Below, one piece after another: positions 13,094-28,613 of a stretch of 64,000 bases of DNA. This DNA is from Cladosporium halotolerans. Lineage: Eukaryota. The stretch is from NCBI RefSeq assembly GCF_011745625.1, contig NW_027191465.1, positions 248,001 through 312,000 of the forward strand, written 5' to 3'. The position numbers and the translations under genes are program-made. The notes beneath the pieces were generated by a model. The model worked only from the letters and a program-made list of their open reading frames with translations. It was not told the origin of the DNA and did no database searches. Each line of letters starts with the position of its first letter. Position 1 is the stretch's first letter.

Positions 13094-14699
13094 CTATCGC
13101 CCCATTGCCCTAAGCTCCTCGATTTCCTCGATCTCCTTCGCTGCCGTATCAGTCAGCACCTCCGGCGCATCCTCGCCGATGATGACTGAGTCCTCCACGC
13201 GCAACGCCAAACCCCTAAACCGCTCGGGCCACCGCTCGTCGTCCGGAACGTACACGCCGGGCTCGATAGTGATACAGTTGTTCTTCAGCAGTGCTCCCGT
13301 CCTTGGGTGGCCGGGCGCGTCGTGAACGTCCAGCCCAACGAAATGTCCAACGTGGTGCGGAAATAGGACCTCCATGTTCCGCCCCGAGACATCAAAGCCG
13401 AGATCCTTCAGCCCCTCGCGCAGCTGGTTGTCCGTAATGCGGTGCAAGCGGTCGAGCGACAGCGTCGCGCTCTCGCGGCACAGCGCGATCACGCTCTTCT
13501 GCACCGCCAACAACATGGCGTACATCTCGCGCTGCGCGGGCGTGAACTTCGCATCCACCGGCCAGCACCGCGTGATGTCCGCGATGTACCCGCCGTACTC
13601 GCCGCCGGCGTCCACGAGCACCGTCTCGCCGCGCCGCAGCGGCATGTCGTTGCGCACGTAGTGGATACTCAGCCCGTTCTGCCCGCCCGCGATCACGGGC
13701 ACGTAGGCTTCGCCGTCCAGCCCTGCGGAGCGGAAGCCATATGCCAGGTCTGCCCAGAGCTGCTTTTCGGTTGTGTGCTGGCCTTTCATGGCCTCGGTGA
13801 TTACGTGACCGGATAGGGCACCTGCGCGACGCATGTTGTGTAGTTCTGCTTCGGACTTCGTGAGGCGAAGCTCGTTCAGGATCGGTCGTAGTTGGCGCAC
13901 GCGCGCGGTGTTCTTGAGAGCCGCTTGCATGCCTTCCACGCCTGTGCCTTCGCCCTGGATGAATTTTGTGACCGGGCTCTTCTTACTGTATGTTCCGATA
14001 TCCGTGAAAACCTCTGACGCGCCGTTGATGATTTGTGGGAGGATACTGGGCAGCATGTCGATGCTCTGTGCCTCGTCTGCGTTGAAGACGTCCTGTGCTG
14101 CTTGAACGCCTGATCGCGCGCCGTCCCATATCTCGGCTTTTTCGTCTTTGGGTCGCACGAAGAGGTGGAAGGTATATTCTACGTCGGTCTCGCCTTTCTC
14201 TGGTGCGGTTGTGAGCGGGTGCTTTGGGAAGCCGGCATAGAGGGACACTGACACCTACCGATTACAGCTACTGATTCGGGCTCGTTGAAGCCTGGTGGGA
14301 GGAATTTCTCAGCGTTCCGATCGATGCTTCCTTTCTATCCTTTCACACGTCCTTACCAGTCAGGTAGTAAAAGTTGGGCTCTTGGTGGTACTCATAGAAC
14401 ACGGCGCCGGACCTGAACTTCAGCTCGTTTGCGACGAGGATTGCTATGCTGTTCTTCGGCAGCTTACTCGCCAGTGCCGCTCGTCGGTGATGGTACTCCA
14501 GTGCTGAAATGCCTGGTGTAAGATCGCCTGGCTCGATCAGGTGCGGATGAGTCTCATGCAGCGGCTGTCCAAATGCCAGTTCGGCCGCGGACACCATCGT
14601 GCGGGCTCCATAATGGAAGGAGGGTCTGCTGCGGAATGTCGATTGGGGTTTCGGGCGACAGATATTGGCCTGAAGAGGCCGCAGCAGGCTCCTCCTCAT
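13094..14699 (-). CDS. ICP55: Mitochondrial intermediate cleaving peptidase 55 (M24B Xaa-Pro aminopeptidase)
   Basis: Arg-rich presequence; FGQPLHETHPHL...LTPGISALEY; YYLTG-FNEP across two introns; DAGGE, ADITR, HHVGH.VGLDVHD, TIEPG and RVED metal-binding motifs. Confidence 0.92.
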
Positions 14700-14972
14700 G
14701 GTGGTGGGTGGACGTGGGTGGAGAGGTCGCTCTAGTGCTCGCTAATGAGCCTCAGTCACGCACTTTTGCCGGGCCCTGATGTCGGCCTCCACAAAGCTTC
14801 GCGCGCGCTTCCCCAGACGATCGCCTGCCAGCCACGCCAGCGAATTCGATTGATTCCATAACCTTGCACATGTTATATAGACGTCACCTGCTGCATGTGG
14901 CATCACACCAGCAAACATTTTTGAGTTCCACGCAGGCGCCTTGTCACCTACAATGCTCCCTCATCTATAACA

Positions 14973-16043
14973 ATGCGCCCTCCCCGCCCTTTTCTTCCTG
15001 CCTCTCTGAAACCTCGTCGACCCTTATTAACCAAAGGCATGGCTTCCAAGACTCAACCTGCTTCTTCTTCTTCTTCTTCTCCTCCACCGTTCAACACCAT
15101 CATAGGCAAACTTGATGATTTCCACGATGCCATCAAGAACTCAAAGCGTGTGCTCGCCCTCTGCGGCGCTGGACTGTCGGCCTCGTCTGGCCTCCCTACC
15201 TTTCGCGGTGCCGGCGGTTTATGGCGAACTCACGAATCAACTTCACTCGCGACTCCAGGCGCTTTCGCCGCAGACCCGGGTCTGGTTTGGCAGTTCTATG
15301 GTTACAGGAGACACATGGCTCTGCAGGCCCAACCCAACTCAGCCCACTACGCTCTCGCCGAGCTGGCGCGCAAAATGCCTGGCTTCCAGTGTCTGACCCA
15401 GAATGTCGACGGCCTAAGCCAACGCGCAGAGCACCCTCGTGCCCAGCTGCAGCTTTTACACGGCACGCTGTTTGATCTTATATGTGCTGACAAGGAGGGT
15501 TGTGGGTACGGACGAACCGATTTCTCGGACCCAGTAACTCCCGCACTAGAAATCCCTACATCAGGCCTTGATCCCACCAGCAACGAAGCGCGAGGCGAGG
15601 CCAGCAGTTTGAGTGAAGCTGTCAGGCGTAGGTCAAATCTTGACATCAGCGACATCAACGTCCATCTCCCCAAACTGGAATCCAACGATCTCCCGCAATG
15701 CCCTCGATGCGAGACAAACCTTCTCCGCCCCGGCGTGGTCTGGTTCGGCGAGCAGCTTCCTTTCACCGTCCTTGACACTATTGACGAGTATCTCGCTGAA
15801 GATGAACCGATCGACTTGATGCTCGTCATTGGTACCTCGGCGCAGGTCTATCCAGCTGCAGGGTATGTCGATCTGGCTAGGCATCGCGGGGCAAGGGTAG
15901 CGACTATCAACATGGATAACTCCGATTTACCTAGAGGCGGACAGGATGATCGTGACTGGTTCTTCTGGGGCGATGCGGCGAAGATTGTTCCTCATATTCT
16001 TCGACCGGTTATCGGTGAGGTCGCTATACCTGAGAAGGTATGA
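14973..16043 (+). CDS. Class III sirtuin (SIRT5/CobB-like NAD-dependent protein deacylase)
   Basis: GAGLSASSGLPTFRG, VWQFYGYRR (YxxR acidic-acyl pocket), TQNVDGL, HG, four Zn-type Cys, RPGVVWFGE, GTSAQVYPAA. Alternative start at 15039. Confidence 0.9.
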   Translation: MRPPRPFLPASLKPRRPLLTKGMASKTQPASSSSSSPPPFNTIIGKLDDFHDAIKNSKRVLALCGAGLSASSGLPTFRGAGGLWRTHESTSLATPGAFAADPGLVWQFYGYRRHMALQAQPNSAHYALAELARKMPGFQCLTQNVDGLSQRAEHPRAQLQLLHGTLFDLICADKEGCGYGRTDFSDPVTPALEIPTSGLDPTSNEARGEASSLSEAVRRRSNLDISDINVHLPKLESNDLPQCPRCETNLLRPGVVWFGEQLPFTVLDTIDEYLAEDEPIDLMLVIGTSAQVYPAAGYVDLARHRGARVATINMDNSDLPRGGQDDRDWFFWGDAAKIVPHILRPVIGEVAIPEKV

Positions 16044-16944
16044 GCCACATGATCAGTAAATGTGGGATCGTTGCTCTTCAGGCTATCTCGTAGGGTGCTC
16101 TATTTGGCTGCATGGGAAGCTACGAACATTGGACAACACTCACGCACGTGCGCTACCCGTTCGACAGACCCTATAAATTCCCCCAAGAGCGAGGAGAGAT
16201 GCGCTGCGACCCACCTCTGTCCCGCCCGGCCGCCTGTGCATGTGCATGATGCGGGATGATGGATCAGCGATGGCTCACTTCAAATGGCGTGAGTGCGCTT
16301 TCCTACTTGGGATAACAGAGCGTCCATACGGCAAAACGCGATCCAGTATGCCTTCAATGCTGTGATAGAGCTAGTTACTCGCCTGATATTTGTCAGGAGA
16401 GAAAGACATGGGAAAATGCGCAGGACATGACTAGAGGTAAAGAAACAATATGGCGATGCGAAATACACCTGTCAAGCGAACCAACTCGACAGCATCTTCT
16501 TGTCAAGATGTTGCCAGTCTCGAAGTGTGCTTCAATTCGTGCCCATGCATGCCTAGCCAGGATCATCTGAGAGGGAGGAGTCAGCTCTTCGGGGAGGAAA
16601 AGCACGTGATCCGTCAAATCTGATGAGCATCCTTCACAATGCGGAAAGCGCCTGCGGGGCCGATTCCAAAGATTGGCTTGACAGGTGCATCTTGCCTCAA
16701 TACACCAGACTACTGCACGTGCGATGGACCTCGTGGCTTTCGGTGGATTGACTTCACATCCAGCTGGAATCGAAGCTTGATAAGTTCTGTGTTCTGCGTT
16801 TGTTCGAGCTGTACGCCCCGCTATCATGTCTCTAAAATCTCGCACTGATGGTATTCACAAAGCCACTCCCAGGTGATATCAAAAAACAGATGCAATTGGA
16901 ACTCCAAGCGCCGCTTAAATGTCAGAATGATCGGTCGTCTGCGG

Positions 16945-18082
16945 TCAGGCCATTACTCGCTGTTCCGTAGCCATTGGTGCAGGCATAGAAGCCGGATCCA
17001 CAGTCACCCTCGATACGTCAACTCTGTCAGTCAGTGACTGGTACATGGCTTGGATCGCTGGCGTCTTGAGTCCGTAGATGCTGGCTAGTCGAGACACATC
17101 ACCTGAGACCAGGACACGTCAGTGTTCATCTGTTACTGGACACTTAGATTTCCACTTACCGCACAATGAATCAACCTCCATGGGCTTGCCTGCCCTAGCA
17201 TCTTGCAGCATGGATGGCACCACCGGAGGGCTTGTTTTTGTCATCACAAGCATCTGCTCAACTATGCTTTCATCAAGCACCGCGCCACTCGCCACTGCGA
17301 CCTGATATGTCTCAGTCATGATGCGTCGCACGAGCTGTAGAAGTCGTGGCGAGGAGATGATCTGGTGTGTGTCCATTCCAGATAATGCGGCCATGGTGTT
17401 GAATGCCCCGTTCCATATCTGCTTTATCCATTTCTCCTTCACAACATCTGGAGATACTCCGAAACTGGACTCGAGACTGGTGAAGTCACGCAGACTGGAC
17501 TCTCGTTGCTTGTCATGACTTGCGGACTTTGACCGCCCGTAAAGACCGAGGGCTAATGAGTGCGCATTGATGCATGTGTTTTGTGCGAAGAGTCCAGGTG
17601 ACGGTTGTGTGCAGGCGATGTACACAATTCCCGAAAGGACCGTGTTCTCAGGGAACGACCTCTGTAGCGGTGCTTCAACACCTACGCCGTTCTGTGCCGA
17701 GACGAGGACGGTCTTGTCGCGGACTAGACCGGAGAGGCTGCTGTATACGCCCGAGTTGATGGCTTTGTTCGCGCAGACGACATAGTCGAAAGGAATGTGG
17801 CGAAGATCCAAAGGCGAACGGCAGACTCGAGCCGGATGGAAGTGACCAGCACCCCATTTGGCTGTTCGCAGGCTGATGCCATTGCTCCGGACGGCTTCGT
17901 AGTTGGACCTGCAGACGACGGAGACTCGCACTCGGGGATTTTGTGCGAGTCGCCAGCCCAGTACCGCGCCGACGGCTGTACAACATGTGTTAGTTCTCCT
18001 TCGACTGCAACTGATGCTTGAACGACGAACCTCCGGTACCGAACACCAGGACTTCACGACGCGGCGGGAAAGCGACTTGCAT
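16945..18082 (-). CDS. Ketopantoate reductase (PanE/ApbA)-family 2-keto-acid reductase
   Basis: Introns 17976..18030 and 17103..17159 give VLVFGTGAVG (GxGxxG), CRSNY, QNG, KWIK..WN, PSMLQD and PMEV motifs. Stop at 16945. Confidence 0.88.
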
Positions 18083-19065
18083 GGTTATGCGATACACGAA
18101 CGAGCGGACTGGCGCAAACGAGCGAATTGGGAAAAGGAAAACAAACGATGAAGAAACGATAGCACTCAGTAATGGGATGATGAACGTGAACCATACAATT
18201 CTGCATCTTGCGGACTGGCCAAGAACAATCACGGGCGCTCCTTTGCACATCTTCTACGGGAGGCATCAACAGCAGAGGACGATCTACGCCGCGGTTGCTC
18301 GGTGGCGCATGCTCATCTCCTCCTCTCCTGTACGCGTCGTTGGAATATGCTCCGCTACGAGACATGGTAAGGCTCGCCTGTCATTAGGAGCCGAAACTAT
18401 AATAGTTGTAATGGCCCGTGCACTCGGCGTTTCAGCGGGATCCCCAAATATGCACTGGGGCTATCGGAGAAGTCAAGGACTCGGTCTCTCCAAACCAAAT
18501 GGCCATGGGAGCAAATGATGACTGGAAATTTCGCTGTTTTTGATGAATGATAGATTCGTCTCTATAGCAGTAGCAGAGCTGATAATTCCCTTTCCCCAGC
18601 GATCCCTAAGGGGAAGTCTGCCGCTGCTACCGGACTGTCCTCCTGTCTCAGATTTGCAGTCGAAGGGTTTCCCCGGATTCAGACATCTTCAACGGTCGCG
18701 GTCCGCCCGCCGCCCTACATCTATAATCGTCCTTCGCTATCGGCTCCTGAGTGGCCAGGTTGAGTTTGCGACATTGCGATTAACGAGGCGCTAGTCGATG
18801 GCGAAACGAGAGAAGAGACATCGGCTTTGCTACTCTGCACACCTGCGCTTGATAATGCTGGGAAGTGTATAGTATGGCTGATCAGGAGAGCGAAGTGACG
18901 GCGGCACGATCCCTTGATCGTTGCTGCCGTGCATGCTCTTGACAATTATATCTCCTGGAAGATTCCTCGACGTTTTACTTATGCTTGGCCTTGCTCGTCT
19001 GAGTTCTTCTCGACGATACAGAGGAACGACAGCCCGATCGGAAGCCGATACAGAACACGCACAGC
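18083..19065. promoter_or_regulatory. Putative bidirectional promoter between the keto-acid reductase and the NRPS-like gene
   Basis: Head-to-head start codons about 980 bp apart with no credible intervening gene. No specific binding site identified. Confidence 0.45.
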
Positions 19066-22061
19066 ATGGATGAGCAGTGCAGCAACACCCCATCCACGCT
19101 CTTGGGTCTTCTTGAGCGCGCCGTCAGCAACTGGCCGAACCACGGTATCACGTTCTGCCAGTCAACAGGCAAAGATGATGGAACACTCTTAACTTATTCG
19201 CAATTGCTCTCACAAGCACAAGTACGTTGCTACTTTTGACGATGACCGATTTTGAAGCTCAGCTATTGACAGCCAACAAGGCACGAGCACGCACACTCCT
19301 CACACGACAGCTTGTGATACCCGGAGAGCCCGCCCTTCTATACTTCGAAGACAACTATGCCAGTGTGGTGTGGTACTGGGCGACCATCATCGCTGGCGCC
19401 ATCCCGGCCTTGCTTCCTCCTATGAAGGCCAAGTCTGTTACCCAGACCAATCTACTGGATCACGTCAGCACACTGCTGGATCGACCGCCTTTCTTGACTT
19501 CAAATTCGCTGGATCATATATTCTCTGACCACCGTGATGCTTTTAAGATCACTGCGATTGAACACATCTCTGAGGACGACGCAAGCACAAAATCACTGCC
19601 CAGTCTGCTTGACCCTGGAAGGGGACACGAGCACAAAGCGGCGACATATCTCTTCACAAGTGGGAGCACCGGGCCATCGAAGGCCGTTGAGTTCACCCAC
19701 CATCAGCTCATAGCTTCCAGCCGGACCAAAGCGGAGACCAACCGCATGAATTCGGACAAAGTCTTCCTCTCCTGGATTTCATTCGACCACAGTGTCTCCA
19801 TTTGCGAACTGCACCTTCACGCCATGTACGCTGGAGCCAATCAAGTCATGATTCCTGCTTCGGAAATGGTTGGCAATCCAGCTGGGTTCTGGAACGCAGT
19901 CTCGTACCACAAAGTCGCTTACACTTTCTCGCCCAATTCATTCCTTGCTACTGCAAATGCTGCTTACGAGAATGATCTGGAGGAGCAGACGATGGACCAG
20001 CTCGACTTTTCGAACCTTCAGGTTCTCTTCTGCGGAGGCGAAGCGAATAAGGTCAAGACTCTGGAAAAAGCAGACGCCATTTTGACTCGGCACCGTGCTC
20101 CAAACCACAGTATCACCCCTGTTTACGGTCTGAGTGAGACTTGTTCAGCAATTTTCTACAACAGGGGGGCTCCCCAGTACGACGTCAGCAATGATTACAT
20201 CTTCGCATCTGTAGGCACAATGCTGCCGGGCAACAGCCTTCGACTTGTCGACAACGATTTGACGCGCGTACCTGGAGGCGAAGTGGGCGCGATTCAGTTG
20301 CAGGGACCGTTGATGTTCAGGAAGTATTACAATAACGAAGCTGCGACGTCTTCTTGCATGACCGAAGACGGCTGGTTCGATACGGGCGACACTGGCCGCT
20401 TAGATGCCAAAGGCAATTTGTGCATCGTTGGACGTACGAAGGAAGTCTTGATTATTAACGGCCAGAACTATTCTTCCTTCGATTTAGAGTACGCTGTTGA
20501 GAGAGCCGTCCCTGAGCTTACGGGTGGATACACAGCTACCTTCGCTGTCTGGCTGGAAGATGCGGAGACCGAAGATCTCGTTATCCTCTTTAATCCCCAG
20601 GACCAATATACTGATGACAAGTCAGCTCTGAGGGATTTAGTTGAGAAAGTAGCGACTGCTGCGACTGAATTTTGCGGCAAGAGGCCTGCCACCGTGGTCC
20701 CGCTACCGAAGGCTTGTTTACCTAAATCCTCGATCGGCAAGCTGTCGAGGAGTGCTTTGAAGCGTTCGCTACTCGCAGGCGAGTTCGATCGTTACAAGGT
20801 TAAAGAAGCCGCGCCCGACTTTGCTAGTACCGGAGAGTCGTCCTTGAGCCCGGAGCTGCTCAAGGCAATTCGACAGGTCTTGCGCGGGACAAATGTCACT
20901 GTAAACGCAAGTACGACACTCTCTTCTCTAGGCATCGACAGCTTAGGTCATCTCCGCCTCAAAGCAGCCATCGAACGCGAATACCCTTCGCATGAATCCA
21001 GGCTCTCCCTAGCTCGCCTCGTAGCGTGCCGTTCCCTCGCCGACGTCGACGCATACCTCTCGGAGCTCCTCAACCCAAGCGACCACAAATACAATGCTGT
21101 AGTGGAGTTGGCGCCCCGAGGTTCGAAGCCCACTCTGATTCTCGGTCCCCCAGCCAGTGGAGAAGTTCTTATCTGGCTCCCTCTGGTTCCTCACTTTCCG
21201 GATCGCCGCATCCTAGCTCTACGGGCCCGCGGTTTTGAGGAAGGTGAAACGCCCTTCGAATCCATGGACGAGACAGTGAATGAGTATTTCGCGGCAATTA
21301 AAAAGTCGGAGCCATCAGGACCCTACTGCCTCCTCGGCAGATGCTTCGGCGGAAACATCGCGTTCGAGCTCGGCAAGCGATTGCAGGCCCAAGGCGACGA
21401 GGTGATCTTCTGCGGTGGCATCAATGGCGCAGCGAACCTTTCCCGCCTGCTGAAGGCCTATCCCTCGAAATTCCCCATCCTCGAGCTCTTGAAATACCTT
21501 GGGGTGATCGAGGGTGAGGAGGGCCGACAGATGTGCGACGAGCTTGGCCATTTGTCCAACGACGATTTCGAGGTCGCCATTCTCGAACGCCTGCAGCCCG
21601 CTTTGAGCAAAGCCGGCATGTCGTTGCAAAAGGTCCGCCGCTGGATGAAAATTGCCGCCAGTTCGTACCGCATCGGTTACGATTATACCCCTCAAGGACG
21701 GATTCCTGCTTTCGACGTCTTTTTCATGCGCGCTCCTGAGATCCTTGCGTGCGACGATAAGGAATTCTACGACGAGTGGATGGGTGAGTGGAACGATTGC
21801 GTCGTGCAGGGGGAGGGAAAGCGTGTTCCTTTGCGGGAGGATCGACCAACCCCGAGTGGAGCACTCCGATTCCACTACCTGCCCGTTCGCCCTGAGAATG
21901 CCGATGCGCCTAGTTTCTCGTCGACGTTCGGGGCCACCCTTAGCGAGGCACTTCGCAGACGAGAGGAGGAAAGAGTGTTTGGTCAGTCGAAGAAGCGTAG
22001 CAGACGAGCGACAATTGGAGACACGATGCCATCCAAAAGACTGGTCACTGTACGGTCATAG
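19066..22061 (+). CDS. NRPS-like enzyme, A-T-TE architecture (MicA/AtrA/TdiA class)
   Basis: Exon 1 19066-19221, intron 19222..19280. A-domain motifs FTSGSTGPSK, YGLSET, WFDTGD, GRTKE and PKSSIGKL. T domain LGIDSL (Ser 20940-20942). C-terminal alpha/beta-hydrolase TE (RARGF..GETPF, GPY). No C domain. Confidence 0.93.
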
Positions 22062-23990
22062 GTGGACTACCTATGACTGAACGAGGGACGATTCAGAAGT
22101 TTTATGACGATTTGGTGCGGACCAAAAAGGCAAAAACATACAACAGGCGGGATTCCCAGATGGTCACCCACTCTAGTACTAGTCGCCCGGTTCAGTACTT
22201 ATGTATGGCAGAGCGGACGGGATGCCCAGTTTTCACTGACCTGTGGTCGTATGTGCTCGTCGCCTGCAATTTGTGTTCAATACCCCATGCGTTTTAACGG
22301 TGCGACTCTGACGATGATTTTCGAGACGGCTATTGAACGTAAATAAAGAAGCGTTGGATGTATCAATTTCAACCGCTGGTGGGCACAATCGAAAACCCCC
22401 AAATGCCATTTCACCGACCCAATTTTACGCTTCCTCCAATTTGTCCGGCCAATCGGGTGAAGGAACGAATGCCAGCTAGCCGTCTCGGTCGACATCAATG
22501 AAGATATCGTTCGCCATAGCTCACCCTGACACGAAGATCGCACATTGCCAAGTCCGCGATTAGGCGAAGGAGGCAGGTGGGAGGGTGCTTGGCATCGAAT
22601 CAGGTATGCTGATAATGTATCCTGTAATCCCTCTCGATAACAGCTCAAGCCTGCAAAGATCAGGCTGAATTGTGGTTTGGGTATACGGCACCGCGGATGG
22701 ACAGCAGCACTCGACCGATTCGAGTCTCGTGGTCCGATTGTTGGCGCATCAGCTGCAGCTACGTTGCCAGCTACTGTCGAACGACTCAATCGGAGGACTT
22801 TCTCCCCCGTGCTGGCATCCACAGGACAAGTCTGGTGCCACCTGGTAGCTCGCATGTTCGAACCAGGCACCGAACAGCAGCGTAGTCACTCAAGTAGATT
22901 ATGCTTCGGGCAAGGCTGTGTGATTGCCTTCAGGGCTTGCATGTAACCCATATTGCCGTGACTGAAGGTACCAGCGGCACGTTTGCCAATAATTCGCTCC
23001 TGGCCTCCCAAGGCTGCCTTGTATTACGACGACGTGGCGCTGCTTTCACGCACCCAACTGATTTCAGCTGTGATACATCACAGCCTCGAGAATCTGAAGC
23101 TCGACGATTCGCTCCTAGGCCGCTCCTCGAGGTCACCACATAGCGCCACCGTCGCGCGTTCAGCTGACTGGTATTCCATGTTGCGTCTCCCGTCACATAT
23201 ATAAATGGACATCTCATTCCTCACCATATACCGCTATCTGGTACCTTCGCCTCCAACTCTATTGCATTTTACCTCGCACAAACTTTGACCACAAGCTCAC
23301 GTCGACTCCAAATCCTTTGTCTTCACGATGCCAGACAACACCAATACAGCTCTCAACTTTCATAGCATTGCTTCTACTGCTGTGAAAGCTTTCAAGACTG
23401 CAGTAGACTCTCGCACACAGGAAGCAAAAATCAAAGCCGAGGCTCAACAGGCGGGTAGAGTTCTACAGGCCAAGGCGGAGCTCAGGCGCAAGTCGGGCCA
23501 CAAATGATTACCCATCTGGATCGCTGAAAAGTACCGCGTAGGCGTCTTGATAAGGTGCGATGCCCTGCCCGTGGTAGTTGCCTATTACCATCATCTGAGA
23601 ACCGTGTGCTTTTTGCATCTGCTTAGTTGTGAAGGAAGGGTTACGACCTCTATCGGTAGCGTATTATCGATGAGACCTACCAGATCCTAATGGGAGGAGC
23701 TCAACCTGTCAATCAAGACTAACGAATGTGTCTCAGGGAAGCGCTACAGCGTGGTCACCAGCGGTTACGGATTAGGATTGGCCATGAGTCTTGACGGAGG
23801 TTCATCTTGTCTGAATATGTCAGAGCATTCTTCGGAGCTACTAAGTCTGTTTATGAGGTCTGCCAAGTCGCCAGCCTCTCTAGAACAAGTCTTAATGACT
23901 TGAAGACTCCTTAAAGGCAAACTTGGTCTATGCTCTGCCGATTGGCATAGAACCTGCCAGTCTTGTGGATCTCAGATTACATCAAAATCT

Positions 23991-24875
23991 ATGTTTCAAC
24001 CTATTGTCGTCGATATCACCACACATACGTCTGAACTTCCGGAGCCACCCGAGCTCCTGGAAATGGTTCAGAGTCAATCTTGCCACAAATTGCCCTCTTA
24101 CGGAATCAAGAAAGTCTTGATCCTTGCCAATTGCGAAAGGGAGAATTCACATGGGGGTTCAGAGTATACAGGACAAGTCACACCTTAAGGCCAACTTTGT
24201 CAAAGCAATCGAAGCCCTTAATGCTGACATGCATCTCGAGTGCTTCTCGTACTATGGATTCGAACAATTCACAGTTGACATCGGCAAGCCAGTGATCGGC
24301 AATGCAGACTATCAGTTCAGGCAATGTCTGAAGAACGACATTGTGAAAAATCGCGAGCTTCTCGAAGGCGCATCTCCGGCCAAACTTCTCACACTCGCGC
24401 AAGACCGCCGCGATCACTTTCATCCAGGTGCCAAAGTACATCACTCCTCGCGGTACCGCTTCTTCCTTGTGGTCGATGATGAAGTGATCCATCACCTGCT
24501 TCAACTCCCCCAATGGCCGCAGTTTGGGAAAGCAGTGTACCGATGGTGCAATCGGTCAAAGTTTTCGACTGCAGGTTCGACTTGTCAGATGAATATTTCG
24601 GAGCCTACATAGGCCCCGAGTCTAATGATGACGAAGAAGATTGCGAGAAGCAAGAGGATGATGGGTTGGAGGGCTAGTGTTGGGCATCTGCCAGCAAGCT
24701 GACGTGGCTATGGTTTCTCGACGGCATTTCCCAAGAAGAGCGTTTTTGCTCGGATGACTCCTGGGATGGAAAACTTCGCCTCGTACACGCAAAGAGTGCG
24801 ATAGACATGATGCTGCCGATTACCGCTTCTAACGTTCTCCCCAAACATAAACGGTTCAAAAACAATTCGAATTAA
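23991..24875 (+). pseudogene. Disrupted paralog of the downstream 25301..26287 gene
   Basis: Pieces in changing frames (FTWGFRVYRT, FVKAIEAL, RELLEGAS, RYRFFLVVDDEV, VKVFD, EG*CWA) match TWGFRVCRT, FRKAIDIL, RERLEGAS, RYRFYIIVDEEV, VKVLD and EGWYWA of the neighbour. About 3 frameshifts and an in-frame TAG at 24675-24677. Confidence 0.82.
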
Positions 24876-25300
24876 ATATGTGTAGATGCGTGTAAAGTTG
24901 ACCTTTGCAGAATGAGGTGATTTGCGACCCTTCGCGGATGGACTCAGAGATATGTAAAACAGCCATTCAACTACACAGTAAGTGAAAGCTCACAATATCC
25001 GTAAAACCCTTTTGCTCCTCGAATAGCGTGCCGAGTCATGGTCCCATCGACGGCGTAGGCGCCCTGGCGCTTACCGCGCAGGTTCATGGCCGCGGACCGT
25101 ATCAGAAGCTATCTAGCCGCGATCCATCGCGCCACATTGTAGGCATCTTCCTTTTCCAGCGTACCGATTATGATCCAGGCAGCGTTCCCAATAATAGTTA
25201 CGGCGCTGAGTTTCTTCAGTGTCTCTAGACCCATTCCAATCGCTCAATTTCACATCGTCTTCTAACCTTGGAACATCACCTAATCGACTCGTAACCTCCG

Positions 25301-26287
25301 ATGGCTCCTACCAGTGACCAGCCCTCCAGCCCAACCGATCTACGGGAAACAATCGAGAAAGCGAGAGCCAATGATGGATTGATCCATGAAGGCGTGAACC
25401 GAGCTGCGTACCGCTATTGTGACCGCCTTCGGGCGCATGGTCATTTCGACAATATGTACACATGGGGCTTCAGAGTCTGTCGGACGACCTACTATCGGCC
25501 TAACTCGGACGAAGATTTCCGCAAGGCAATTGACATCCTCCGCGAATACTTGCGCGCCTCGTTCTCTTCGAATCACGATAGCAGCTTGGGGAATGAGCAG
25601 CGGGACGCGGCCAAGAACGATCTGCCCGAGGATTTGGTTGCCGTAGACGACGGTCCAAACCAGCAGCTATGGCAGCGTTTGAGGCTCGAGGTTGTAGAGG
25701 ACCGTGAGCGTCTCGAGGGCGCATCTACCGCTCAGGTCCACGATCTCATCAACGAATGGATGGACTCCAAGGGCGTGAAGACCATGGACTGTCCGCGTTA
25801 CCGCTTCTACATCATTGTCGACGAAGAAGTTATGCAGAGCCTCTTGAATCACCCGTCGCCCGCAGTCGGCTTTGACGCGGACTTGCCGGGCGGAGTGAAG
25901 GTCTTGGATGCTGCGTATGGGAAACCAGACTCGTACTTTGGTGTAGAAGCGGAGGGCGACAAAGGCGACGAGGACGACAAGGAGGACGAGGACGAGCATT
26001 CGGTGTCCGGCGAGAGAGATCCAGACTACGAGGGATGGTACTGGGCCGCCCTCAGGGACTTGCCGGAGCTCTATTTTGAATGTGAAGATAGAGAGGAGGG
26101 CGCGATGTACACTTGGCATGAAGGCAAGCCCATGTTTACGGCGCCAGGGTTTGTCTTTGGCAATAACGGATGCGGCCATGACCTTTGCGACGAAATCCAT
26201 GGTTCCATGATGATGGCATTGATGATGTACGCAAACCACAAAGCCAACCAAGAAGCTGAACCCACCGAGGAGGTGACTAAGCATTGA
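25301..26287 (+). CDS. Uncharacterised fungal protein (WGF-x-x-x-RT family) with an acidic loop
   Basis: Intronless 328-aa ORF with coding-like codon use and an adjacent decayed paralog sharing its motifs. Confidence 0.8.
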   Translation: MAPTSDQPSSPTDLRETIEKARANDGLIHEGVNRAAYRYCDRLRAHGHFDNMYTWGFRVCRTTYYRPNSDEDFRKAIDILREYLRASFSSNHDSSLGNEQRDAAKNDLPEDLVAVDDGPNQQLWQRLRLEVVEDRERLEGASTAQVHDLINEWMDSKGVKTMDCPRYRFYIIVDEEVMQSLLNHPSPAVGFDADLPGGVKVLDAAYGKPDSYFGVEAEGDKGDEDDKEDEDEHSVSGERDPDYEGWYWAALRDLPELYFECEDREEGAMYTWHEGKPMFTAPGFVFGNNGCGHDLCDEIHGSMMMALMMYANHKANQEAEPTEEVTKH

Positions 26288-26410: not shown

Positions 26411-27634
26411 CTATACTCCGTCTCTTCCTTCTTCATATGCCTTTCGCTGCCGATTCATCTCCCAATCGACGTACAACCAAGAGCAAAATGCCCACGTAAC
26501 AATCCAGCCAAACAGTATGCCGAGCGAAAGTCCGAACGCAATGTGGAATTCCAGCAACCAGATGACGGCTGAGAGGCACCCGATGTAGATGACGACACCC
26601 AATTCCCACCAGAGCGTCAGCCAGACAAACATCCGGCGGAACGCCTTGCTCGACTCGTATCGCTCGTTGTACCGTACTCTAAATTCGCGGTCCTGCAGCC
26701 CGTCGACGGCGATAAAATCTTCGGCTGCGTAATAAATGAAAGGTCGGAGGCCTGAGCCTCGTGCGTGTGAATTGATCCCAAAGGGGATGTTGAAAGGGTG
26801 AAGGGTGGTTATCACCATCAGGACGCCGAGGAAGGCCATCAGAAACGCTGGGCCATACAAGTATAATTTGGGAATGACAAGCGACGCGCCGGCGACGAAG
26901 GGTACAAGAGCCATCAACATGGCAACAAGGTAAACCCAGCTTGTGGCGTCGAGTTCCCAGCGATTTCGCGACAAAAGCGGCGCGCATTGTTCTCGGCGGA
27001 AGAATAACCGCCATACTCGTGCCAGCAGCACGTAAAGCTCACCGAAGCCAAAGCATACCACGGCGTAGCCCATGATATCTTCGTTGAATTGGGGTTTCTC
27101 AATTGGGCACGCATCGCCGCGGTCGTGCCATTCTCTGCAGTCGTTCTGCCATCGTGCGCGATGTTTGTTGTACCATGTGTAGTAAATAATGCAAGGAATG
27201 ACGATATCACAGAGTACGATCATAGGTACTCCAAGGGTAATGCCCAAGTGTTCCATGGGATGCGACTTCTTGTTCGCGAGTTTCGTGAGCGGCCGTTTCA
27301 GCTGGGGCATGTCGGCCATTTGGGATTCCTTTGCGGACCCGGTGACAGTGACCGACGAGTTGGCGTGTAGACGTTGTGGTCTTACAGGAGGTGGTGGCTC
27401 CAGGTCCGGATGCGGTCGCTCATTCTCTGGTGCAGCGTCTGAATCGGATGATCCATAGGTAGTATTTCCAGTGTCCTGCTTTTCGATATCTTCCATGTCC
27501 TCCTCTTCTTCTTTCTCAATGTTTTCCTGGCGCCGCTTCTCTGCATCGGAGGGTTCTAACTTATTTCTCTTCGAACCGTTGGCGCTGCCACCACGCGTAG
27601 CGCCAACGCTTGGGAACCTCTCAAGGCTCTCCAT
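26411..27634 (-). CDS. Uncharacterised multi-pass membrane protein
   Basis: Disordered N-terminus followed by about 6 hydrophobic segments and a conserved-looking loop (YYAAEDFIAVDGLQDREFRVRY). First in-frame ATG after an upstream stop is at 27634. Confidence 0.8.
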   Translation of the reverse strand: MESLERFPSVGATRGGSANGSKRNKLEPSDAEKRRQENIEKEEEEDMEDIEKQDTGNTTYGSSDSDAAPENERPHPDLEPPPPVRPQRLHANSSVTVTGSAKESQMADMPQLKRPLTKLANKKSHPMEHLGITLGVPMIVLCDIVIPCIIYYTWYNKHRARWQNDCREWHDRGDACPIEKPQFNEDIMGYAVVCFGFGELYVLLARVWRLFFRREQCAPLLSRNRWELDATSWVYLVAMLMALVPFVAGASLVIPKLYLYGPAFLMAFLGVLMVITTLHPFNIPFGINSHARGSGLRPFIYYAAEDFIAVDGLQDREFRVRYNERYESSKAFRRMFVWLTLWWELGVVIYIGCLSAVIWLLEFHIAFGLSLGILFGWIVTWAFCSWLYVDWEMNRQRKAYEEGRDGV

Positions 27635-28613
27635 GATTTCGTCGTCCAGTGTTCGCGTATCCAAAGTCTTCCTCACCTCGACGGGTCTCAGCTTTTCCTA
27701 GATCGCCATGTACGAGGAAGTCTTGCCCAACCAGAGTAGTACGAAAGTCGCCAACAGCACTGCGCATGTTCAAACAGAAACGCTCATCATCACAATTCCA
27801 AACAGAGGCGGAGTGAAACGCTTACGGTAGCAAGGGGGAAACGCGACCCGACGGCAGCCCACCGTGCCACCGTCATGGCCCTAGTGTTAAGGTACAAACG
27901 ACTCATGACGATTTTCCGATCCGGCGGGTCCGAGCGACGACCTAAAAGAAAGATCGCACCACTTCGTCGCCCAAACAGCAGCGAGTCATGCGGCTTGGCG
28001 GCGTCGTAGAGTCGTTAGCAGAAAAACTAAGACGCGGTCCGCCCGGATGCCGTTTGGCGGCGAGATTTGCCGGGCGTGCGCGGAACCTTGACGGGTATCG
28101 CAGAGGGTGAAGGTGTCGGCAGGAAATTGCGGGTGGCAGATGCACGGAAAGAGGATTTCGATCGCTTGACGACGGTGGCGGCCCGGCTGCGCTGCTGATC
28201 AGGGTCCACATGGCTATGACGCTTGAATGCGTGGAGGTGTTTGGCGGGAGGCTTCACCTTACGGCAGATGGAGACTGGGGTTTCTTCACTCATGTGTTGC
28301 TATCTGATCATCGTGGAGAGATCCATTTATGGAAGTCGTAACATCGATTTAAAGCATGGAGGCAAGCTGTCGAAGAGCCTCAGGCATAGACACACGCCTA
28401 TGACTTGCCCAAACATCGCAACCAAATTGCACATCCGGATGGGTATTGGAAAACAAAGGTTTGGGCAAGATGGTTTTTATTTTCCATTTTCTCATGACTT
28501 CATGGCCAAGCTATTGAAGCTGACATTCGCAGCCATCCTCGTTGTCTTTGGCTTCATTGTTCATGCATTCCGATTCAGCCGCCTTTCCGACATGGCACCA
28601 AGCCATGCTCGAA

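Follow-up and report, generated by a model that had tools for sequence, protein, structure and literature searches.

The described systems closest to the gene pair reported here, which lies in a 64,000-nucleotide stretch of Cladosporium halotolerans DNA (contig NW_027191465.1, positions 248,001 to 312,000; the whole stretch is called the window, and positions are counted from its first letter), are the fungal enzymes built of an adenylation (A), a thiolation (T) and a thioesterase (TE) domain and the keto-acid reductase KivR. TdiA, AtrA/NPS3, MicA, AcyN, AlfA, and PgnA share the A-T-TE layout, have neither a condensation domain nor an Asp at position 1 of the A-domain code, and are homologous to the synthetase considered below. 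The characterized A-T-TE enzymes all use aromatic 2-keto acids, not hydroxy acids (PMC12105029, PMC9047271), and their carbon-carbon couplings are possible because the keto group permits them. As of 2025, no non-reducing enzyme resembling a nonribosomal peptide synthetase (NRPS) had been reported to depart from two identical aromatic keto acids (PMC12105029). KivR, on the other side, is an NADPH-preferring 2-ketoisovalerate reductase of the PanE/ApbA family that is clustered with cyclodepsipeptide synthetases of the beauvericin/enniatin type, and it supplies a free D-2-hydroxy acid that is then activated by the A domain of the synthetase (PMC3478992).

A PanE-family reductase gene lies on the minus strand of the window at 16945-18082, and an A-T-TE NRPS-like gene on its plus strand at 19066-22061; the two are divergent, and both are intact. 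An earlier note, made from the letters of this DNA, had described two intact divergent genes about 980 bp apart, and this layout is correct: the exact gap is 983 bp, and the outer limits given there, 16945 and 22061, are exactly the two stop codons. As with KivR, a PanE-family reductase gene lies beside a peptide-synthetase gene; unlike in the KivR systems, however, the partner is a single A-T-TE module without a condensation domain, so that any ester formation would fall to the TE. Compared with the TdiA/AtrA/MicA family, the synthetase belongs to an uncharacterized clade, has a PanE-type partner, has lost the TE histidine together with its nearest relatives (the window clade), and is accompanied by no aminotransferase gene. 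The reductase shares its two-domain fold family and catalytic motifs with E. coli PanE and yeast Pan5 but sits in a clade of synthetase-linked enzymes instead. A full-text literature search, which left most subscription journals outside, found no description of an A-T-TE enzyme paired with a PanE-family reductase; the pair can thus still be called undescribed, as the earlier note had it, with the proviso that it may have been reported elsewhere. We think that the pair probably makes an unknown small metabolite through chemistry undescribed for the A-T-TE class.

The gene pair is co-conserved and jointly mobile across several fungal orders

Protein searches, limited to proteins sharing short words with the query, were used to collect homologues, and we considered the best 120 of 458 matches for the synthetase and the best 120 of 172 for the reductase (E ≤ 0.001). 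The public protein collection contains a synthetase relative that is 98% identical to the window protein (P0001). Among the matches listed, at least 25 pairs of synthetase and reductase homologues share a contig, as recognized by an equal length of the longest contig, and three of these pairs lie on contigs of only 7410, 7715, and 12240 bp. Adjacent locus tags are found in Cladosporium fusiforme (Q7P37_005703/005704, with 64% and 70% identity to the window proteins), Plenodomus lingam (IAQ61_002086/002085), Ascochyta rabiei (EKO05_0005589/0005588), and Boeremia exigua (OPT61_g3649/3650).

A metagenome scan with the synthetase alignment A1 gave 80 loci, 19 of which encode fungal relatives. The reductase, as located by tblastn, lies directly upstream of the synthetase and on the opposite strand in all 13 fungal loci with enough upstream DNA (L001-L005, L007-L010, and L012-L015), these being nine distinct sequences whose synthetases are 35-64% identical to that of the window; L006, L011, and L016-L019, which begin within or too near the synthetase gene, were left out of the count. 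The aligned reductase and synthetase segments are about 0.65-2 kb apart in the 13 informative loci. In an all-versus-all comparison of open reading frames (ORFs), the pair are the only genes that the different locus groups have in common, and the neighbors identified by Pfam change from group to group as follows.

L001 and L002: HVA22 and TANGO2 upstream, Pex24 and Pam16 downstream
L003, L005, and L007: tyrosine phosphatase upstream, M28 peptidase downstream
L010 and L014: GH3 upstream, carboxylesterase downstream
L009 and L012: a gene of A-T-acyltransferase layout and an ATG22-like transporter upstream; peroxidase, Ctr, and ferric reductase downstream

The internal arrangement is kept while the neighbors change, and the pair therefore behaves as one unit. 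Together, the 13 loci, the four genomes with adjacent tags, and the contig-sharing pairs bear out the suggestion that the two genes belong together; their pairing goes well beyond chance, and the pair is co-conserved and jointly mobile across several fungal orders. Reductase and synthetase trees show the same main groups. The pair from Penicillium nalgiovense, a Eurotiomycete (P0036 and P0169, on one 12240-bp contig), is placed in both trees within the group sister to the Dothideomycete clade of the window, a hint that both genes were transferred together. Moreover, the identity matrices of the two proteins correlate with r = 0.97 over 20 pairs, a value reached in 0 of 500 permutations (seven pairs with one member too short were dropped), but we do not take this to show co-evolution over and above common descent, since vertical inheritance would make any two genes correlate.

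In two lineages the pair has additional neighbors. A second carrier-protein enzyme and the ATG22-like transporter precede it in L009 (2672-4879 and 6608-7752) and L012 (3-1448 and 3157-3852), loci of a clade at about 36% identity to the window; enzyme and transporter are both conserved between the two loci. The enzyme unites AMP-binding_C and PP-binding with a BAHD/TRI-like acyltransferase, and in this lineage the cluster may extend beyond the pair. A type-B carboxylesterase gene (COesterase) stands just downstream of the synthetase in L010 (13659-15720) and L014 (13443-15498), of a clade about 43% identical to the window, and could be a third cluster member or plain local synteny.

Gene models and conserved residues of the two enzymes

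The gene models and domains on which the residue positions below depend are:

18082-18031, 17975-17160, and 17102-16945, minus strand: coding exons of the reductase gene, spliced model
18030-17976 (55 nt) and 17159-17103 (57 nt), minus strand: reductase introns, from the spliced model and a contig of sequencing run X7
18083-19065, no strand, 983 bp: divergent intergenic region, presumed shared promoter
19066-19221 and 19281-22061, plus strand: coding exons of the NRPS-like gene, intron placed by homology
19222-19280, plus strand, 59 nt (GTACGT...AAG): predicted intron of the NRPS-like gene, from homology with L001, L002, L003, and L005
19287-20790, plus strand: A domain (Pfam AMP-binding)
20856-21047, plus strand: thiolation (carrier) domain (Pfam PP-binding), phosphopantetheine Ser codon at 20940 (GIDSL)
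21126-22022, plus strand: thioesterase domain (Pfam Thioesterase, AlphaFold2 model, Foldseek)

The reductase reading frame runs from an ATG at 18082 to a stop codon at 16945-16947 on the minus strand, and splicing of the window DNA by script gives a protein of 341 residues. A 321-codon open frame spans 17119-18084, and the Rossmann motif GTGAVGAVLG at the reductase N-terminus arises through the first splice. The NRPS-like gene has its ATG at 19066 and the end of its stop codon at 22061, and encodes 978 residues. Its 960-codon open frame covers 19179-22061, and the upstream exon supplies the conserved N-terminus; the 59-nt intron is predicted because the frame of exon 1 must join the main frame, and the length of the joined protein agrees with four related loci and with the NCBI model of Cladosporium fusiforme. 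A 41-nt intron (19222-19262, giving 984 residues) was replaced by the 59-nt model after comparison of the junction with related loci, and is the less likely reading of it. The provisional 984-residue model underlies the homology searches and the TE residue numbers Arg745, Cys741, Glu711, and Asp889 used below.

The intergenic regions of the window, L001, L002, L003, and L005 have no word of eight or more bases in common. The 7-mers ATTTCCA and TGAGACA, read on either strand, do occur in all five divergent promoter regions where shuffled sequences lead one to expect 0.095, a weak signal.

Four public sequencing runs were placed on the window as contigs, the RNA or DNA nature of each being a guess. 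A 1024-nt contig of run X7 omits 57 and 55 bases exactly at the modeled reductase introns, and the omitted stretches, CT..AC on the plus strand, are GT..AG on the coding strand; a spliced reductase mRNA is the simplest reading of this contig. Contigs of the same run also lie on the synthetase ORF at 20150-21518, but they are not assignable to RNA because this segment is intronless, and the absence of X7 cover at 18108-20117 carries no evidential weight. A 7056-nt contig of run X2 spans 16900-22060 unspliced.

The two-domain layout of the reductase is evident from its Pfam matches to ApbA, the N-terminal Rossmann domain (8.6e-19), and to the helical domain ApbA_C (6.7e-23). It reaches 139 bits against NCBIfam TIGR00745, for which the cut-off is 141.35, when only the 277-residue main exon of the 341 residues is scored, and its best solved relative is a bacterial protein annotated as 2-dehydropantoate 2-reductase (3i83, 2.3e-33). 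Lys88, Asn113, Lys202, Asn206, Ser272, and Glu284 are invariant among 30 linked reductases (alignment A2), and the window protein carries the motifs ANK, QNG, IKQ, WNG, PSM, and MEV. Matching the columns of A2 by motif to the numbering of E. coli PanE makes these residues equivalent to Lys72, Asn98, Lys176, Asn180, Ser244, and Glu256, which serve catalysis and the binding of the substrate carboxylate and hydroxyl (PMC3478992). The reductase thus retains the family residues for binding the carboxylate of a 2-oxo acid and for catalysis, and it is probably NADPH-dependent.

In a FastTree phylogeny of the window reductase and 101 homologues, among which there is no named yeast Pan5 or KivR, all 26 linked reductases sit inside one 78-leaf clade (support 0.94). 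A separate 14-leaf clade (support 0.91) draws on Zoopagomycota, Basidiomycota, Eurotiomycetes, and Dothideomycetes, including Smittium, a basidiomycete, Capronia, Fonsecaea, and Aureobasidium, and we read it as the general fungal PanE because it is taxonomically broad. Another branch outside the linked clade holds Hypoxylon, Elsinoe, Thyridium, and a second Neofusicoccum paralogue (P0221), so that Neofusicoccum contributes, from two different species, one member of the linked clade (P0171) and one outside it. Since the linked clade stands apart from the broad fungal PanE clade, and its members are kept beside the synthetase, the window reductase is probably not the housekeeping Pan5 orthologue. 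Two of the three outcomes that the earlier note had named as fatal to its idea thus speak in its favor instead: the pair is co-conserved, and a housekeeping reductase is improbable. No reductase from Beauveria or Fusarium, the KivR type, was found among the best 120 of 172 matches, although the short-word search leaves room for distant kinship.

Pfam recognizes in the synthetase, in this order, AMP-binding (1.1e-34), PP-binding (8.9e-06), and Thioesterase (2.2e-17), and no condensation domain at E ≤ 0.01. The adenylation core motifs are intact, and both the A10 Lys (codon 20739) and the carrier Ser (codon 20940) are invariant in alignment A1. The A-domain code is predicted to be V-S-E-S-F-G-V-S-A-K (codons 19794, 19797, 19806, 19938, 20028, 20034, 20121, 20145, 20148, and 20739), its ten positions being assigned through the motif positions of the GrsA reference. 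The code is identical in 19 of 19 window-clade members. At about 40-45% identity to the window the commonest code is A-A-E-F-M-G-S-S-A-K (18 of 28 sequences), and A-N-E-F-M-G-A-S-A-K and A-C-E-F-M-G-A-S-A-K together account for 22 of 38 more distant sequences. The pocket is therefore not aberrant within its clade, contrary to what had been noted before, though it is unlike that of the sister clades. The amino-binding Asp is absent from position 1 in all 85 codes tallied.

The nearest solved A-domain structures are the McyG loading domain (4r0m, 1.7e-69) followed by StsA (6ulw/6ulx, about 1e-58), of which the latter is a keto-acid-activating domain (PMC10510592). The synthetase homologues listed bear names given by their sources such as microperfuranone or aspulvinone synthetase, and the orthologue in Parastagonospora nodorum, SNOG_03620, is 33% identical to TdiA and MicA and was uncharacterized as of 2014 (PMC4205913). 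Judged by its residues, the synthetase would activate a non-amino acid, tether it, and hand it to a cysteine. By architecture and homology it is a member of the A-T-TE family that fails one defining feature, a complete TE triad.

The TE nucleophile is a cysteine (codon 21342, GRCFGG). An MAFFT alignment of the window protein with 84 full-length homologues has Cys at this position in 85 of 85 sequences, and the Cys nucleophile is accordingly a trait of this whole part of the family; basidiomycete NPS3, in contrast, has Ser there (bioRxiv 10.1101/2020.03.25.008516). The usual acid position is Asn in the window (21423) and Asp in most relatives (GGID). In sister clades the last strand is followed by the usual GxH motif (LRYHRVEGTHFTILRPE is one example), but the histidine of this motif is missing in all six window-clade sequences of A1, where the window reads LRFHYLPVRPENADAPS, and the Cladosporium fusiforme protein lacks even the upstream His of LRFH. 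A complete triad of nucleophile, acid, and histidine is thus not present in the window TE. The earlier note had called this domain aberrant, which proves right for the window clade in its loss of the GxH motif and wrong for the Cys nucleophile, since that is not specific to the gene.

The Pfam Thioesterase match covers only profile positions 2-95 of 226. The fold is whole, since Foldseek aligns the AlphaFold2 model (predicted local distance difference test score, pLDDT, 94.1; predicted template modeling score, pTM, 0.90) with NRPS and polyketide synthase thioesterases over 276-321 columns. In the model, strand 255-259 (LRFHY) is followed by a loop after β8 without histidine (21879-21908) and then by a long helix. 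In ObiF1 and AB3403 the TE has retained its catalytic His and follows modules with a condensation domain, whereas the window-clade TE has no His after β8. The nucleophile elbow of the AB3403 TE (PDB 4zxh) has Cys in GWCFGG opposite GRCFGG of the window, and a catalytic cysteine forms a β-lactone in the ObiF1 TE (PMC10510592).

Mean pairwise identities within the clades are distributed unevenly along the protein:

A domain: window clade 0.79, sister clade 0.72
TE N-terminal part: window clade 0.72, sister clade 0.83
TE lid: window clade 0.52, sister clade 0.79
TE C-terminal part: window clade 0.49, sister clade 0.75

The ratio of nonsynonymous to synonymous substitution rates (dN/dS), taken from two locus pairs without saturation, is nevertheless 0.14 (L001-L002) and 0.09 (L003-L005) for the TE lid and C-terminus, which indicates purifying selection, and 0.06-0.07 for the A domain. 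Moreover, Arg745, Cys741, Glu711, and Asp889 (984-residue numbering) are each invariant in 18 of 18 window-clade members, unlike in the sister clade; these include the Arg that directly precedes the TE Cys and, five residues ahead of that Cys, another Cys. We read the window-clade TE as re-modeled, not decaying, on the strength of these patterns. At codon 21147-21149 the window and P0001 have Pro (LILGPPASGE). The corresponding residue is His (LILGHPG) in 17 of 18 window-clade members and in 23 of 24 sequences of the sister clade, and the stretch lies near the usual oxyanion-hole region of the TE.

Possible chemistry of the pair

Both genes read outward from an intergenic region of about 1 kb, and they may form a self-contained two-gene biosynthetic module. 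In such a module the reductase would turn a free 2-oxo acid of primary metabolism into a 2-hydroxy acid, which the synthetase would adenylate and load onto its own carrier domain; one unit would then move to the TE cysteine and be joined to a second carrier-bound unit, giving a small dimer, held together by an ester bond in the case of hydroxy acids. What we infer here is which substrate is used, whether reduction precedes loading, and what is made. That the reductase pre-forms a 2-hydroxy acid for loading by the synthetase, with the TE joining the units, is the explanation we put first, tentatively and at somewhat short of an even chance. Supply of a hydroxy acid is preferred because KivR offers one fungal precedent of a PanE-type enzyme beside a synthetase, and the invariant carboxylate-binding residues favor a free 2-oxo acid as the reductase substrate. 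Joining and release in the window clade must use a modified catalytic apparatus, since the histidine has been lost while the cysteine is kept and selection persists. The fuller version, in which a PanE-fed 2-hydroxy acid, a cysteine TE without histidine (in the window clade), and ester joining lead to a depside or dilactone, seems to us distinctly doubtful.

Several observations weigh against hydroxy-acid supply. The characterized A-T-TE enzymes, as described above, all use aromatic 2-keto acids. The A-domain code starts with Val in the window clade and with Ala in the sister clades, and a hydrophobic residue in this place is the signature of keto-acid activation (PMC10316625). The Cys/Asp/His TE is still complete in sister clades that have the same reductase as partner, which makes the reductase partnership independent of the loss of histidine. 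In Zasmidium cellare, finally, the closest homologues of reductase and synthetase are on separate contigs.

An alternative that we consider unlikely, though a serious contender, leaves the chemistry of the family as it is: the synthetase would dimerize two aromatic 2-keto acids, and the reductase would then act as a tailoring enzyme on the 2-oxo-acid or ketone group of the released dimer, the reduction either setting up lactonization or fixing the final oxidation state. Such tailoring agrees with the keto-acid dimerization that is described as family-wide (PMC12105029, PMC9047271), with the keto-acid signature at code position 1 and the rank of StsA as second-best solved relative of the A domain, and with the complete TE of those sister clades that have the same partner; a linear aldol or Claisen dimer would, in addition, still bear a 2-oxo-acid end that fits the conserved carboxylate-binding residues of the reductase. 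On the other hand, we know of no A-T-TE pathway with a tailoring enzyme of the PanE type, and the full-text literature search found none; the window-clade TE without histidine is also hard to square with the base-catalyzed carbon-carbon couplings of the classical mechanism. The known substrates of PanE-family enzymes are small free 2-oxo acids, which also counts against tailoring.

Reduction in trans is improbable in our view. Here the A domain would load a 2-oxo acid and the reductase would dock on the carrier and reduce the tethered 2-oxoacyl thioester, so that a free-standing enzyme takes the place of the ketoreductase domain that bacterial depsipeptide synthetases have built in. In these bacterial synthetases 2-oxo acids are indeed loaded and then reduced while on the carrier (PMC3478992), the A domain resembles keto-acid-activating StsA, and a partner acting in stoichiometric amount would fit the strict one-to-one, head-to-head arrangement. 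However, the invariant carboxylate-binding Asn and Ser point to a free acid, a thioester having no carboxylate to bind. The bacterial ketoreductase domains belong to a fold family other than PanE, which again counts against in-trans reduction, and we know of no precedent for reductive release by a PanE-type ketoreductase. A further point against it, albeit a weak one, is that no fused reductase-synthetase was found at E ≤ 1e-10 among 4319 longer candidates. Prediction of a complex between reductase P0125 and the T-TE part of synthetase P0005 gave a score of 0.00 without folded controls and weighs neither way on binding.

We give very little credence to mere coincidence, in which a housekeeping Pan5 for pantothenate synthesis would adjoin an unrelated NRPS-like gene: the reductase does have all PanE hallmarks, and even its truncated exon comes near the TIGR00745 cut-off, but the head-to-head arrangement in 13 of 13 informative loci persists despite changing flanks, the linked reductases stand apart from the broad fungal clade (as do P0171 and P0221 of two Neofusicoccum species from each other), and the reductase tree mirrors the synthetase tree, Penicillium nalgiovense pair included. 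That the window-clade synthetase is losing its function and the pair is a relic without product is just as hard to credit, since the absent GxH motif in six of six window-clade sequences, the window's Asn at the acid position and Pro in the LILGHPG stretch, and the low identity of the TE lid and C-terminal part (0.52 and 0.49, where the sister clade has 0.79 and 0.75) are set against two intact frames, dN/dS of 0.09-0.14 in the C-terminal half of the TE and 0.06-0.07 in the A domain, the invariance of the Cys and of Arg745, Cys741, Glu711, and Asp889 in 18 of 18 members, a code fixed in 19 of 19, a TE model with pLDDT 94.1, and the spliced reductase transcript of run X7.

Flanking DNA and wider significance

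Spliceosomal introns and typical housekeeping neighbors mark the window as fungal. To the left, a Sir2-family gene (14925-16043) ends about 900 bp from the pair, and beyond it lie an M24 aminopeptidase P gene (13094-14254), a gene resembling GDP-mannose pyrophosphorylase, and a dynamin gene. To the right, a 5S rRNA gene (22135-22254, minus strand; Rfam RF00001, 75.2 bits) lies 74 bp past the synthetase stop codon; it accounts for a spike in depth at 22128-22328 in all four sequencing runs and for a cluster of short ORFs that the window has in common with L005 and L007, where its position relative to the pair differs. About 3 kb poor in ORFs follow, then ORFs without Pfam match, and further right an Abhydrolase_2 gene, Cdc23, and a P450. 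The GC content is 0.48-0.58 throughout, and there is accordingly no AT-rich decay block. Flanks that had been called gene-poor or decayed are thus ORF-poor over some 3 kb on the right, whereas the housekeeping genes close by on the left and the even GC content speak against decay. No further secondary-metabolism gene adjoins the pair in the window, and no aminotransferase gene accompanies it either there or in the flanks of the related loci.

Among the right-hand ORFs without Pfam match, those at 24121-24612 and 25295-26287 (both plus strand) have a similar stretch (…LEGAS…RYRF..VDDEV…LL), which suggests a small local paralogous family, and 26411-27697 (minus strand) encodes a predicted multi-pass membrane protein.

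Few orphan biosynthetic genes are commoner in fungal genomes than those for A-T-TE synthetases. The pair described here defines a widespread uncharacterized A-T-TE clade with an obligatory PanE-type partner and, in the lineage of the window, a cysteine TE without histidine. Its carriers include the plant pathogens Parastagonospora, Plenodomus, Ascochyta, Diplodia, and Pseudocercospora, a Cladosporium species, and related metagenome sequences. The two-gene unit is small enough for easy heterologous expression, which could uncover a widespread unknown metabolite, a second role of PanE-family reductases in fungal secondary metabolism, and a TE that works by cysteine without the usual histidine. 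If hydroxy acids are indeed loaded and joined as esters, the synthetase would be the first non-reducing NRPS-like enzyme outside the rule of carbon-carbon coupling between two identical aromatic 2-keto acids, and its product would be a metabolite common to Cladosporium-like molds, Pleosporales, Botryosphaeriales, and Mycosphaerellaceae.

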